IMG/VR virus record: IMGVR_UViG_2713896898_000002
Coordinates: 1-13,233 of that record
Origin: a virus
Lineage: Duplodnaviria; Heunggongvirae; Uroviricota; Caudoviricetes
DNA: 13,233 nt
Direction: 5' to 3' (one strand)
The position numbers and the translations under genes are program-made. Shown piece after piece: positions 8,068 to 12,778 of the stretch (positions are counted from its first letter, which is position 1; every line of letters starts with the position of its first letter). The notes beneath the pieces were generated by a model that did no database searches, was not told the DNA's origin, and saw only the letters and a list, made by a program, of their open reading frames with translations.

Positions 8068-8087
8068 GGTCGTTAATGATTTTACCC

Positions 8088-8114
8088 ACCCGCCGCTGGC
8101 GGGTTTTTTATTTT
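8088..8114 (+). terminator. Intrinsic terminator-like hairpin upstream of the major tail gene
   Basis: Stem acccgcc (8088-8094), loop gct, stem ggcgggt (8098-8104), then TTTTTTATTTT (8104-8114). It sits between the tail terminator stop and the major tail SD. Confidence 0.55.
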
Positions 8115-8126
8115 CAGGAGACGAGT

Positions 8127-8831
8127 ATGTCCTCTAATTTTGAGCGTTCGCAACTGACGAAAATTATGATTTCGTCTGCACCGGTAACAGCAGAAACCCT
8201 GGATTCTGCCAGCTATCTTGGCCTGAGCTGTACAATCAAAGAGGTGCAGTTTACCGCAGGACAAAAGCAGGATATTGATGTCACCACGCTGTGTTCTGTT
8301 GAGCAGGAAAATATTAACGGTCTTGGTGCCGCGTCAGAGATTTCCATGTCAGGCAACTTTTACCTCAATGCTGCCCAGAACGCGTTGCGCAGTGCCTATG
8401 ACAATGACACCACGTATGGCTTTAAAGTTATTTTTCCGTCAGGAAACGGATTTACCTTTATGGCAGAGGTGCGTCAGCATACCTGGTCTGCAGGAACCAA
8501 TGGTGTTGTGGCTGCAACGTTTTCCCTGCGCCTGAAAGGTAAACCTGTGCTGATGACAGAGCCGCTGAAAGTGAAGGTCGATTTAAACAGCACGCTGCAG
8601 GTTTCTGCCGGAGCGAAACTCGAAATGATGGTTGAGGCTGCCGGTGGTGTGCCGCCTTATTCTTATGCCTGGAAAAAAGGTGGTTCTCCTGTTTCCGGAC
8701 AGACGGCGGCAACGTTCAGTAAGGCATCAGCAGCATCCGGTGATGCGGGTGCGTATACCTGCGAGATTTCTGATTCAGCAAGCCCGGTTAACAAAGTGAC
8801 CTCCACTTCCTGCACTGTTACCGTCAGTTAA
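8127..8831 (+). CDS. Major tail protein with C-terminal Ig-like domain
   Basis: 234 aa from ATG 8127, with SD AGGAG at 8116-8120. The track ORF start at 8076 would read through the terminator hairpin and is rejected. The C-terminal ~85 residues (KVKVDLNSTLQVSAGAKLEMMVEAAGGVPPYSYAWKKGGSPVSG...GAYTCEISDSA...VTVS) have an Ig-like signature, as seen on lambda gpV and other siphovirus tail-tube proteins. Confidence 0.85.
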   Translation: MSSNFERSQLTKIMISSAPVTAETLDSASYLGLSCTIKEVQFTAGQKQDIDVTTLCSVEQENINGLGAASEISMSGNFYLNAAQNALRSAYDNDTTYGFKVIFPSGNGFTFMAEVRQHTWSAGTNGVVAATFSLRLKGKPVLMTEPLKVKVDLNSTLQVSAGAKLEMMVEAAGGVPPYSYAWKKGGSPVSGQTAATFSKASAASGDAGAYTCEISDSASPVNKVTSTSCTVTVS

Positions 8832-8845
8832 TGAGGATAGATGTG

Positions 8846-9217
8846 ATGACTAAAAATATCCGTAATCTGGCACTGGCAACGATGTCGGGGTTTCGCCATA
8901 AAACTGTTGATGTGCCTGAATGGGAAGGGGCAACGGTTGTGTTACGGGAACCTTCTGCAGAAGCCTGGTTGCGCTGGCAGGAGATCGTTAAAGCAAAAGA
9001 TGATGAGACACCGTTATCCGTTGCGGAGCGCGCCCGCCGAAATCTGGAGGCGGACGTTGAACTGTTCATTGATGTTCTGTGTGATACCGGGCTGCAACCT
9101 GTATTTTCAGAGGATGATCGTGAACAGGTGATTGCCGTGTATGGCCCGGTGCATGCACGGCTTCTTCGCCAGTCTCTGGAACTGATCAGTGATGCCGGAG
9201 AGGTTAAAAAAAAGTAG
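8846..9217 (+). CDS. Tail assembly chaperone (gpG-like), zero-frame product
   Basis: ORF directly after the major tail gene, ending ...AGEVKKK* at TAG 9215-9217. SD GAGGA at 8834-8838 precedes ATG 8846; ATG 8831 is an alternative start. The position and acidic character fit gpG-like chaperones. Confidence 0.8.
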   Translation: MTKNIRNLALATMSGFRHKTVDVPEWEGATVVLREPSAEAWLRWQEIVKAKDDETPLSVAERARRNLEADVELFIDVLCDTGLQPVFSEDDREQVIAVYGPVHARLLRQSLELISDAGEVKKK

Positions 9218-9519
9218 CGCTTCCGGGGATGCGTTTTCTGATGATGCTGGCGCTCAGGATGGGGCGCACATTGTCAGAGTTACGCCGGGAAATGTCCGCA
9301 TCAGAAATCATGATGTGGGCAGAATTTGACAGGTTCAGCCCGCTGGGGGACGAACGGGCTGATATCCGGGCTGCCCAGATTGTTTCAGCTGTTTACGGTG
9401 CGCAGGGGGTCAAAGTGCCACTGAATGATGCGCTTCTTCAGTGGGAGCAGGAGCAGACAGAAGGCGCCTCAGATCCATTTGCCGGACTGGAAAACGCGCT
9501 TTTAATAGTGTCTCAGTGA
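8846..9519 (+). CDS. Tail assembly chaperone GT fusion (gpGT-like), produced by -1 frameshift at 9208-9214
   Basis: After a -1 slip the reading continues ...GEVKKK-VALPGMRFLMMLALRMGRTLSELRREMSASEIMMWAEFDRF... to TGA 9517-9519. The G/GT frameshift pair directly upstream of the tape measure gene is a conserved feature of long-tailed phages. Confidence 0.75.
9208..9214 (+). promoter_or_regulatory. -1 programmed ribosomal frameshift slippery heptamer A_AAA_AAG
   Basis: In the G frame the last codons are GTT AAA AAA AAG TAG. The heptamer A AAA AAG (9208-9214) is the same slippery motif as in E. coli dnaX. The -1 frame has a TAA at 9205-9207 just before the site and is then open to 9519. Confidence 0.75.
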
Positions 9520-9527
9520 GTCAACAT

Positions 9528-9549
9528 AACCGCTTCGGCGGTTTTTTTT
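9528..9549 (+). terminator. Intrinsic terminator-like hairpin with UUCG tetraloop between the GT and tape measure genes
   Basis: Stem aaccgc (9528-9533), loop ttcg (9534-9537), stem gcggtt (9538-9543), then a T-run through 9549. Confidence 0.55.
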
Positions 9550-9559
9550 CGTCCGGAGA

Positions 9560-12500
9560 ATGAGTGTGGCGACATTACGTGAACTGATTATTAAAATTTC
9601 GGCAAACTCCCGGTCATTCCAGTCAGAGATCGCCCGGGCTTCGCGTATGGGGCAGGATTACTACCGCACCATGCAGAACGGAGGCCGGCAGTCTGCTGCT
9701 GCATCCCGTGAAATGCGGCGTGCACTGGCAGAAGTGACGGATCAGATAAATACGGCGAAGTCTTCGGCACTGAATATGGCGGGGGCATTTGCCGGTGCTT
9801 TTGCCACTGGACATCTAATATCTCTTGCGGATGAATGGAGTTCAGTAAATGCCCGTCTGAAGCAGGCCACGCAGTCAAGTGATGATTTTCAGGCATCACA
9901 ACGTGAATTAATGGCAATCAGCCAGAGAACGGGGACGGCTTTTTCTGATAACGCCAGCCTTTTTGCCCGCTCTGCAGCTTCCATGCGGGAGTATGGTTAC
10001 AGTTCTGAGGAGGTACTGAAAGTCACCGAGGCGCTCTCCACGGGCCTGAAATTATCCGGTGCCAGTACAGCAGAAGCCAGTTCGGTGATCACGCAGTTCA
10101 GCCAGGCACTGGCGCAGGGAGTGCTGCGCGGTGAAGAATTTAACGCCGTGAATGAGAGCGGTGATCGTGTTATTCGTGCGCTGGCCGTGGGAATGGGCGT
10201 TGCCCGTAAGGATCTGAAGGCCATGGCGGATAACGGAAAACTGACCGCCGATAAGGTTGTTCCTGCACTGATTAGTCAGCTTGGGGCGTTGCGTGATGAA
10301 TATGCAGCAATGCCTGATACGGTTTCATCCTCTGCAACCAAAGTTGAAAACGCCTTTATGGCCTGGGTTGGTGGTGCGAACGAGGCAAGCGGAGTGACGA
10401 AGACGCTCTCCGGGGTGCTGAATGGTATTGCAGGCAATATTGACACCGTGGCAACCGCTGCCGGTGCTCTGGTTGCCGTCGGGGTAGCCCGATATTTTGG
10501 CAATATGGCGTCTTCTGCTGGATCTGCAACTGCCGGATTAATTACTGCAGCCAGAAACGAAGTGGCTCTTGCGGAAGCGCAGCTCCGGGGGACGCAGATA
10601 GCAACAGCCAGGGCGCGTGCGGCGGTTTATCGTGCGCAACAGGCGGTTGCTGCTGCTCGCGGTACCGAAAGGCAGGCAGCCGCAGAATCGAAACTGGCTG
10701 CTGCCCAGGCGTCACTTACCCGTAATATTGCGGCCAGAACAGCAGCACAGACAACACTGAATAATGTCACGTCAGTGGGGAGTCGTCTGTTAAGTGGGGC
10801 ACTGGGACTGGTTGGGGGTGTGCCGGGGCTTGTCATGCTGGGGGCTGCGGCCTGGTACACGATGTATCAGAATCAGGAGCAGGCCAGAGAATCTGCACGC
10901 CAGTATGCCGCAACAATCGACGAAATTCGCCAGAAAACGTCGGCAATGTCGCTTCCTGAAGCGTCAGATAATGAGGAAAAGACGCGGCAGGCACTGGAGG
11001 AACAAAATCGCCTGATTAGCGAACAGGAAGGAAAAATTCGCGGACTGAAAAATCAAATTGCTGATTATCAACGTTGGCTTGATGAAAGTTCGCAGAGTGG
11101 TTCGGGTGCTGAAATCATCCTTAAAGGGCTTGCAGAAGCAACAAATCAACTGGCAGTTGAACAGTCTCGCCTAACTCAAATGCAGGGCAAAGCGCAATCC
11201 ATTCAGGATGTGCTTGCCGGGCTGGAGGAGCGACGGGTGGCGTTGATCCGTCAACAGGCGGCGGAACAAAACAAAGCGTATCAGTCCCTGTTGATCATGA
11301 ACGGGCAGCATACCGAGTTTAATCGCCTTCTCGGGCTTGGTAATGAATTACTTCAGCAGCGACAGGGGCTGGTGACTGCACCATTACGGCTGCCACAGGC
11401 CACCCTGGATGATAAGCAGCAGACTGCACTGAATAACAGCAAGCGCGAACTGGCTCTGTCCCGTCTGAAGGGGGAAGCGCGTGAGCGTGCCCGACTGGGC
11501 TATGTTGCGGATGATCTTGGTTTTGTGGGGGAGGCGTATCAGACAGCCAGACAGAATTATATCAATAACTCACTGGATGCATGGCGAAATAACCAGGCAA
11601 ATAAACCCAAAACACATAAAAAGACCGAAGCGGAAAAAACAGAAGATATTTATAAACAGCTGATTAAACAGCAAAAAGAACAAATAGCACTGGCAGGGCA
11701 AAATACTGAACTGGCTAAGATGAAATATCAGGTCAGTCAGGGCGAATTATCAACCCTGTCAGAAGCGCAGAAAAAAACGCTTTTACAGAATGCGGCACTC
11801 ATCGACCAGAAAAAAATTCGCGAGCAGCTTGCCGCGTATGAAAGCAGTCTGGCGGACAGTAACGCCAGTGTCAGAGCATCAAATGAGGCTCAGTTACTGG
11901 GATATGGTGAAGGCTCACGGATGCGTGAACGACTTCAGGAAATGTGGAGTATCCGGCAGGCGTTTGAGCAGAAAAATAATGAGCTGCTGAGACAGTATCA
12001 GACCGGAGAAATTGAAGAATCCCTGTGGAAACAGGAAAAAGCACTGAATGAAAAATATCTGGAAGAGCGTCTCAACGATCAGCAGGATTATTATGCAAAG
12101 GCTGATGCTTTACGCAGTAACTGGAATGCCGGACTCCAGGAGGGACTGACGAACTGGGCAGACAGTGCCACTGATTATGCTTCGCAGGCGGCAGATGCTG
12201 TCGTTTCCACTATGGACGGGCTGGTATCAAATATTTCCGATGCACTGGCCGGGAATGTTGTGGACTGGAGAAACTGGGGGAGTTCAATTCTCCAGGAAGT
12301 TTCAAAAATTCTGATGAACGCTGCCATCGTTAACGGGCTGAAGTCACTTTCCAAAAGCATGTCCGGTGCCGGAGGATGGCTTGGTACGGTCGGCGACTGG
12401 CTTTCCGGTGCAGTGGCAAACGCAAAAGGTGGTGTTTACACATCGGCAAATCTGAGTGCTTACAGTAACACCATTGTGGATACACCGACGTATTTTGCTT

Positions 12501-12778
12501 TTGCGAAAGGTGCCGGGCTGATGGGCGAGGCCGGGCCTGAAGCTATCATGCCACTGACTCGGGCAGCGGACGGCTCTCTTGGAGTCAGAGCCATTGGCAA
12601 TGTGAATGGTGGCGGTGGATTTGTTTATTCTCCCGTGTATCACATCAGCATTCAGAATCAAGGGAGCAATGGCGAGACAGATACGCAGTCAGCCAGGGGG
12701 CTGGTGGATCTGATCGACAGCAGGGTTGTGTCAATTATGCAGTCATCACGTCGGGACGGAGGATTATGCAGTGCCTGA
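9560..12778 (+). CDS. Tail tape measure protein (lambda gpH-like)
   Basis: 1072-aa ORF, Ala/Gln-rich and largely helical, with internal hydrophobic segments. The C-terminal region (...WADSATDYASQAADAVVSTMDG...NWRNW...RDGGL...) resembles the lambda gpH C-terminus as recalled. It follows G/GT and precedes gpM-like. GTG 9566 (6 nt after SD GGAGA) is an alternative start to ATG 9560. Confidence 0.93.
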   Translation: MSVATLRELIIKISANSRSFQSEIARASRMGQDYYRTMQNGGRQSAAASREMRRALAEVTDQINTAKSSALNMAGAFAGAFATGHLISLADEWSSVNARLKQATQSSDDFQASQRELMAISQRTGTAFSDNASLFARSAASMREYGYSSEEVLKVTEALSTGLKLSGASTAEASSVITQFSQALAQGVLRGEEFNAVNESGDRVIRALAVGMGVARKDLKAMADNGKLTADKVVPALISQLGALRDEYAAMPDTVSSSATKVENAFMAWVGGANEASGVTKTLSGVLNGIAGNIDTVATAAGALVAVGVARYFGNMASSAGSATAGLITAARNEVALAEAQLRGTQIATARARAAVYRAQQAVAAARGTERQAAAESKLAAAQASLTRNIAARTAAQTTLNNVTSVGSRLLSGALGLVGGVPGLVMLGAAAWYTMYQNQEQARESARQYAATIDEIRQKTSAMSLPEASDNEEKTRQALEEQNRLISEQEGKIRGLKNQIADYQRWLDESSQSGSGAEIILKGLAEATNQLAVEQSRLTQMQGKAQSIQDVLAGLEERRVALIRQQAAEQNKAYQSLLIMNGQHTEFNRLLGLGNELLQQRQGLVTAPLRLPQATLDDKQQTALNNSKRELALSRLKGEARERARLGYVADDLGFVGEAYQTARQNYINNSLDAWRNNQANKPKTHKKTEAEKTEDIYKQLIKQQKEQIALAGQNTELAKMKYQVSQGELSTLSEAQKKTLLQNAALIDQKKIREQLAAYESSLADSNASVRASNEAQLLGYGEGSRMRERLQEMWSIRQAFEQKNNELLRQYQTGEIEESLWKQEKALNEKYLEERLNDQQDYYAKADALRSNWNAGLQEGLTNWADSATDYASQAADAVVSTMDGLVSNISDALAGNVVDWRNWGSSILQEVSKILMNAAIVNGLKSLSKSMSGAGGWLGTVGDWLSGAVANAKGGVYTSANLSAYSNTIVDTPTYFAFAKGAGLMGEAGPEAIMPLTRAADGSLGVRAIGNVNGGGGFVYSPVYHISIQNQGSNGETDTQSARGLVDLIDSRVVSIMQSSRRDGGLCSA

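Follow-up and report, generated by a model that had tools for sequence, protein, structure and literature searches.

Does the A AAA AAG heptamer at the very end of a tail chaperone gene carry a fraction of ribosomes into the overlapping -1 frame, so that a phage makes a G-T fusion protein alongside the shorter G protein? An earlier note raised this question from the letters of the stretch of DNA analysed here (the window, 13,233 nt). Long-tailed phages of the lambda G/GT type reportedly carry such a chaperone pair with a programmed -1 frameshift, as described by Xu, Hendrix and Duda in 2004. We examined the locus by direct reading, by protein family and structural RNA searches, and by comparison with relatives and with published frameshift systems. 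Taken together, the results indicate that a low-level -1 ribosomal frameshift on A AAA AAG, in an HK97-like E. coli prophage, very probably makes GT alongside G. The feature itself is already known: it is a routine, catalogued member of the HK97-type G/GT frameshift family.

Anatomy of the shift site and its gene neighbourhood

By direct reading and translation, the chaperone ORF (8846-9217, plus strand) ends in GAG GTT AAA AAA AAG TAG. The features of the locus are these:

8127-8831, plus strand: major tail (tube) protein gene with a C-terminal Ig-like domain, the upstream neighbour of G
8846-9217, plus strand: G, tail assembly chaperone, zero-frame product of 123 aa (PF06222)
9205-9207, plus strand: TAA, the -1 frame stop just 5' of the shift site, which shuts the T frame
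9206-9213, plus strand: 8-A run containing the slippery site, a possible low-level RNA polymerase slippage site
9208-9214, plus strand: slippery heptamer A AAA AAG in X_XXY_YYZ phase, from direct reading and from relatives
9215-9217, plus strand: zero-frame UAG (TAG) stop of G, immediately 3' of the heptamer, with a putative "shifty stop" role
9214-9519, plus strand: T segment, the -1 frame after the slip, 101 codons plus TGA at 9517-9519
8846-9519, plus strand: conceptual GT fusion, join(8846..9214, 9214..9519), 224 aa
9528-9551, plus strand: terminator-like hairpin AACCGC-TTCG-GCGGTT followed by T8, between T and the tape measure gene
9560-12778, plus strand: tape measure protein gene, the downstream neighbour and presumed binding partner of G and GT

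The -1 frame is open from 9208 to the TGA at 9517-9519, a total of 103 sense codons of which 101 follow the slip, and the G and T frames overlap by only 10 nt. Because the -1 frame is closed by the TAA at 9205-9207, the T frame is reachable from upstream solely at this site. Conceptual translation of a -1 slip gives the junction peptide ...GEVKKK-VALPGMRF.... The earlier note had these points right: the ending of the ORF (to the base) with A AAA AAG at the last codons of G, the stop directly abutting the heptamer after 9214, the -1 frame closed by TAA and then open to 9519, and the junction peptide. Its claim that T can be entered only by frameshifting also stands, given this TAA and the lack of a conserved start or Shine-Dalgarno (SD) sequence for T described below.

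The motif is not enriched in the window overall (AAAAAAG occurs five times in 13.2 kb on both strands, against 2.6 expected). For one copy to fall at the single in-phase position of the obligatory 10-nt overlap, the prior is about 1e-4, and E. coli genes show strong avoidance of A_AAA_AAG in this phase (z = -10.1; Sharma 2014, PMC4066793, Table S3). The sole other plus-strand copy, at 8673-8679 in the Ig-like domain of the major tail gene, is phased TGG AAA AAA GGT (AAA_AAA_G), which is not the phasing of -1 programmed ribosomal frameshifting (PRF).

Both halves of the pair belong to recognised families. G matches PF06222 (Phage_TAC_1; Pfam, E = 2.8e-58, 195.7 bits against a cut-off of 25) and PDB entry 2OB9, "Tail assembly chaperone" (E = 4.7e-49, residues 1-125). 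T matches PF06223 (Phage_tail_T, the lambda-T-type domain; E = 1e-19, 71.2 bits against a cut-off of 25.9) as well as phrog_337. When joined, the two match the fused GT phage family phrog_14766 in one stretch over positions 1-220 of 224, scoring 310 bits (E = 1.3e-92), more than either half alone (151 and 146 bits). A search of NCBIfam gave zero matches.

The gene order is major tail, G, T and tape measure, with the pair at 8846-9519 flanked by 8127-8831 and 9560-12778. The upstream gene matches Pfam Ig_2/Ig_3 and, weakly, Phage_TTP_11/Phage_tail_2; the downstream gene matches PF06120 (Phage_HK97_TLTM, E = 3e-82), TMP_3 and Tape_meas_lam_C in Pfam. The likely start of G is ATG 8846, which has a GAGGA SD 7 nt upstream, is the PGAP start and is where the Pfam alignment begins. 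ATG 8831 is the upstream and less likely alternative.

Two terminator-like hairpins lie in this region. The one at 9528-9551 is canonical-looking and intrinsic, and falls within the 40 nt that separate the T stop from the tape measure start, inside what would be expected to be a single late operon. At the equivalent position HK97 and HK446 have a moron (gp15) and a putative terminator, of which the window keeps the terminator only. The other (8088-8113, ACCCGCC-GCT-GGCGGGT followed by a T-rich tail) sits just upstream of the SD and ATG of the major tail gene (8116-8129), paralleling a putative terminator annotated before HK97 gp12. Since this hairpin precedes the SD and ATG, the mechanical ORF start of the major tail gene at 8076 is probably wrong and 8127 is the likely start; ATG 8127 is preceded by an AGGAG SD, and the PGAP homologue is 705 nt long.

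The G-T arrangement in relatives

We compared 135 homologous loci taken from phage records, 80 IMG/VR contigs and 44 loci from a one-genome-per-species scan, using an alignment of G from six enteric sequences to find them. The IMG/VR scan gave mostly near-identical copies; the diversity came from the one-genome-per-species scan. T lies in the -1 frame relative to G at 131 of the 135 loci, and the four exceptions are indel variants: an A run of seven (A7; L049 and L069), an A run of nine (A9; L120) and an upstream disruption (L104). Among 74 close relatives, the run is A8 in 70, A7 in two and A9 in two. The site arrangement is kept in the same proportion of close relatives (70/74) and recurs across genera. 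Together with the gene order, the PF06222/PF06223 pairing and the full-length match to phrog_14766, this supports the earlier assignment of the locus to the conserved G/GT strategy of long-tailed phages.

The length variants differ in their consequences. In the two A7 IMG/VR contigs (~1546-1570), G continues in the +1 frame for some 37 further codons. In the A9 variant (L120, ~1550-1590, Candidatus Symbiopectobacterium endolongispinus), G and T are fused in a single frame, and this natural in-frame fusion aligns without gaps to the predicted GT through ...KKKV...; at the level of sequence, it is a natural demonstration of the G-T junction. Two further loci (L077 and L078) read GTT AAA AAA AAA TAG, so that A AAA AAA replaces A AAA AAG. 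These two and the variants in run length may be real mutations or homopolymer sequencing errors.

The shift site falls at the homologous Lys codon throughout the relatives, and 40 of 43 non-redundant representatives use AAG there. Of the two Lys codons AAG is the less common, accounting for roughly one in four in E. coli. While the homologous site always has a shifty Lys (or Asn) codon, its 5' half and its distance from the stop are variable:

A AAA AAG + stop: window clade, Stx phages, Serratia, Pectobacterium, Brenneria, Symbiopectobacterium
GAA AAA AAG + stop: Enterobacter, Kosakonia
GCA or GTA AAG + stop (tetramer only): Klebsiella, Pantoea, Erwinia
G GGA AAG CCG stop: LMessi type
G GAA AAG, 5 codons ahead of the stop: HK97-like
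G GAA AAG CCG stop, 1 codon ahead of the stop: Cronobacter ENT39118 type
A AAA AAG or A AAA AAA, far from the stop: Burkholderia
G GGA AAC: Pseudomonas

The suggestion that the motif is unusual for this family is not borne out, as it had already been catalogued and is common to the Stx phage, Serratia, Pectobacterium and Burkholderia relatives.

The nine codons that separate the shift site from the first conserved Met have no -1 frame stop in any relative and encode a conserved peptide (K-V-x-x-P-G-x-x-F-L-M). Only 9/43 non-redundant relatives have ATG 9229, and an SD-like sequence precedes the conserved Met (9241) in 3/43. This is not the pattern that the earlier note had named as evidence against frameshifting (a conserved T start and SD with a non-conserved slippery site).

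The locus is present in 11 deposited E. coli phages at 95-99% identity (phi467, Evi, PhiR49_2 and others). Of 5,426 complete E. coli genomes, 903 gave a match, and in 876 of these the identity was 95-99%.

Efficiency, stimulators and competing routes to the fusion

In the proposed mechanism, most ribosomes would translate G (8846-9214) and end at the UAG at 9215-9217, releasing the 123-aa chaperone. A minority would slip back one base on A AAA AAG (9208-9214), with tRNA-Lys in the P and A sites re-pairing from AAA AAG to AAA AAA. The next codon would then be GUA (Val), and translation would continue for 101 codons to the UGA at 9517-9519, giving a 224-aa GT that reads ...GEVKKK-VALPGMRF... across the junction. 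If the pair works as in lambda, G and the G portion of GT would coat the tape measure protein (9560-12778) while the T domain would recruit the major tail protein (8127-8831). These are the roles described for the lambda proteins, where G and GT are made at about 30:1 (Atkins 2016, PMC5009743). The fixed G:GT ratio would then be set by the efficiency of the frameshift.

Earlier work on homologues bears indirectly on that efficiency. Antonov 2013 (PMC3711429) described a frameshift cluster, named "phage tail assembly chaperone", that resembles HK97, and assayed two cassettes from it in E. coli; ...AGA_AAA_AAG_TAG... gave 7% frameshifting and G_GGA_AAG_CCG_TAA gave 6% (Suppl. Table S2). The first cassette is identical to the phage 2851 or Stx phage type (L004). 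Sharma 2014 (PMC4066793, Table S4) lists A_AAA_AAG_25 (ECs1801, the tail assembly chaperone prophage cluster) as a true case of -1 PRF. Since 7% was measured in the homologous cassette, which shares the heptamer and the stop, a few per cent would be expected in this phage. Without stimulators, A AAA AAG and G GGA AAG gave only 0.29% and 0.28% in E. coli (PMC4066793). The low figure for the bare heptamer and the lack of a conserved stimulator, set against the several per cent expected, count against the proposed mechanism, and the case for GT in this phage is comparative throughout.

These values also show that calling the heptamer "highly efficient dnaX-type", in contrast to that of lambda, is misleading: the two motifs are equivalent both bare (0.29% vs 0.28%) and in family cassettes (7% vs 6%). 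The E. coli dnaX gamma/tau site has the same heptamer and uses the same tRNA-Lys. However, dnaX is flanked by an SD-like sequence on the 5' side and a hairpin on the 3' side, shifts at about 50% and makes a shorter product by doing so, whereas the window has no conserved SD, no conserved or well-placed hairpin, a longer frameshift product and an expected efficiency of a few per cent. Since the efficiency of dnaX comes from stimulators that are absent here, the contrast drawn between dnaX and lambda amounts to no real functional difference.

We looked for stimulators on both sides of the shift site. A dnaX-like SD would be expected about 10 nt 5' of the site; the GGAG and GAGG at 9197-9203 sit 7 and 4 nt upstream, which is too close. 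This SD-like GGAGAGG (9197-9203) is not kept in relatives, being replaced by GGC in 52 loci and by GAA GTT ATT in five, and the Stx phage and Serratia types have nothing SD-like upstream of the site. Sharma 2014 (PMC4066793) likewise scored cluster A_AAA_AAG_25 as SD = N. Downstream, a predicted local hairpin (~9231-9284) does not stand out (z = -1.4) and begins 16-21 nt beyond the heptamer. RNAalifold found 0 consensus pairs downstream of the shift site across 43 relatives, and no family was matched in an Rfam search. When the downstream structure of the window is placed on the alignment of 43 relatives, the outer helices are 46-57% paired; the inner 6-bp stem is 83% paired, without compensatory change and inside the invariant LALRxGR coding motif. 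The earlier observation that no strong downstream stem-loop is obvious therefore holds.

One further structure was considered. A 171-nt fold (z = -3.6) places the slippery run in a loop closed by CCGGAG/CUUCCGG and GUUA/UAGC (9195-9226). We rejected it as a stimulator, as both arms would be inside the ribosome during the slip; its outer stem is also weakened by the commonest variant (GGC for GGA).

Among characterised systems, HK97 gp13/gp14 (NC_002167; PDB 2OB9) shares the PF06222 and PF06223 families, the gene order, the -1 relation, the shift at the homologous Lys AAG codon and the K-V-x-x-P-G-x-x-F-L-M junction peptide at equal length. The HK97-like phage HK446 is 64% identical to the window in G and 63% in T. 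HK97-like phages differ in their shift site (CGG GAA AAG, that is G GAA AAG), in a G that runs 5 codons further to its stop and in an overlap of 52 nt rather than 10 nt; HK97 also has the moron (gp15) between T and the tape measure gene, which is absent from the window. The Stx phage/O157 type (phage 2851, BP-4795, ECs1801; G 68% and T 64% identical) shares the protein families, the A AAA AAG directly followed by UAG and the T in the -1 frame, but has a 6-A run (AGA AAA AAG) instead of 8 A, and its -1 frame opens 25 rather than 10 nt before the end of G.

Lambda G/GT resembles the locus in strategy, gene position, a T in PF06223, a shifty A-site AAG read by tRNA-Lys and a low efficiency without a known stimulator. 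Its heptamer, G GGA AAG, lies 5 codons before the stop and has an intrinsic shiftiness equal to that of A AAA AAG. Lambda G matches only PF06894 (Phage_TAC_2), whereas the G of the window has no PF06894 match. BLASTP between the two G proteins was not significant (E = 4.9), nor was that between the two T proteins, so the link of the T of the window to lambda T is through the shared Pfam profile PF06223.

An 8-A run could also produce the fusion during transcription. If RNA polymerase added an extra A within 9206-9213, the resulting mRNA would have G and T in one frame and standard translation would give the identical ...KKKVALPG... fusion, so the two routes are not separable by sequence alone. 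The A8 run is present in 70/74 close relatives, and the A7 and A9 genomic variants indicate that DNA polymerase, at least, is prone to slip on it. In bacteria, slippage is efficient on runs of 9 A or 9 T (Atkins 2016, PMC5009743), and runs of more than 7 A have been implicated in transcriptional realignment (as cited by Antonov 2013, PMC3711429). In another gene family the fusion yield rises with run length, from 10% at 7 A to 40% at 9 A and 63% at 11 A (PMC3711429). However, homologues without a long homopolymer (G GGA AAG, G GAA AAG, GCA AAG) keep the -1 G/T arrangement, and the Stx phage cassette still gave 7% with only 6 A. Furthermore, the AAG found as last Lys codon in 40/43 relatives is predicted by ribosomal tRNA-Lys slippage, while polymerase slippage would favour a longer pure A run. 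We consider transcriptional slippage improbable as the main route, though a minor additive share from it is plausible.

Two other readings dispense with programmed frameshifting. T could be an independent gene started at ATG 9229 or 9241, with the fusion neither made nor needed; PGAP and phage records do list a separate "phage tail assembly protein T" from the equivalent of 9241, with a G-rich stretch (GGGG, 9225-9228) 12 nt ahead of that ATG. This reading is highly improbable, given that ATG 9229 occurs in 9/43 relatives and an SD-like sequence ahead of the conserved Met in 3/43, that the nine codons before this Met are open and conserved as protein, that the fused sequence scores as a single family member, and that frameshifting has been measured in cassettes from homologues. 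Alternatively, a single G-T ORF might have been split by mutation or by an error in the length of the A run. Homopolymer runs are indeed error-prone, and a few database entries have A7 or A9. We give this possibility next to no weight, since A8 and the same frame relation occur in 70/74 close relatives, ~900 complete E. coli genomes carry the locus, the -1 relation holds in distant relatives without a homopolymer, and the short G product of HK97 is a solved, folded protein (2OB9). Comparative sequence evidence thus effectively excludes both independent T initiation and a broken gene or artefact, and low-level ribosomal frameshifting on A AAA AAG is the reading that we prefer.

The adjacent stop codon and the annotation of the locus

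The stop codon may do more than end G. It directly follows the shift codon in 25/43 non-redundant homologues, including every tetramer-only (A AAG) case. Klebsiella/Raoultella loci (L005, L106, L107, L109) have only the A AAG tetramer (GCA/GTA AAG TAA) before the stop, as do loci from Pantoea, Erwinia, Kalamiella and others (L112, L115, L116, L117, L122, L124, L129); in these tetramer-only relatives T is still in the -1 frame, with an overlap of 10-106 nt. We considered whether heptamer quality relates to stop adjacency: tetramer-only GCA/GTA AAG sites all abut the stop, G GAA AAG sites do not, and the sequences are phylogenetically non-independent.

A tentative reading, which we regard as possible but rather doubtful, is that the zero-frame stop is part of the signal (a -1 "shifty stop"), with the 8-A run possibly adding some transcriptional slippage, so that two mechanisms would yield one product. 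Slow termination would give the peptidyl-tRNA-Lys on AAG time to slip back. If true, this would explain why the stop abuts AAG in so many homologues, how the tetramer-only GCA AAG UAA sites of Klebsiella, Pantoea and Erwinia could work where P-site re-pairing is impossible, and why the family cassettes gave 6-7% against 0.3% for the bare heptamer in a different context.

The records of close relatives show G and T as two separate CDS, with the T start at the equivalent of ATG 9241, and none of those checked has a fusion annotation. The earlier note had predicted that gene callers would split off T, which they do, but from 9241 and not from 9229 as it proposed. The missing annotation reflects gene-caller behaviour and is not evidence that the fusion is absent. 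Recoding is annotated in more distant homologues: HK97 is described as "translated due to a -1 frameshift", and HK446 and Burkholderia phage KS9 have joined CDS. In one phage record (ON470580.1, 1993-2320), three overlapping "tail assembly chaperone" CDS cover the G-T region, one of them starting within G in another frame, which looks like gene-caller noise around an unannotated frameshift.

For the G/GT paradigm, the locus adds nothing biologically new, and its practical value lies in annotation: it should read join(8846..9214, 9214..9519) with ribosomal slippage, and the T start at 9241 in existing annotations is false. Of mild interest is that the family offers a compact natural series (A AAA AAG + stop, GAA AAA AAG + stop, GCA AAG + stop, G GGA AAG one codon off and G GAA AAG five codons off) that bears on the share of a 3' stop and of an A run in low-level -1 frameshifting.
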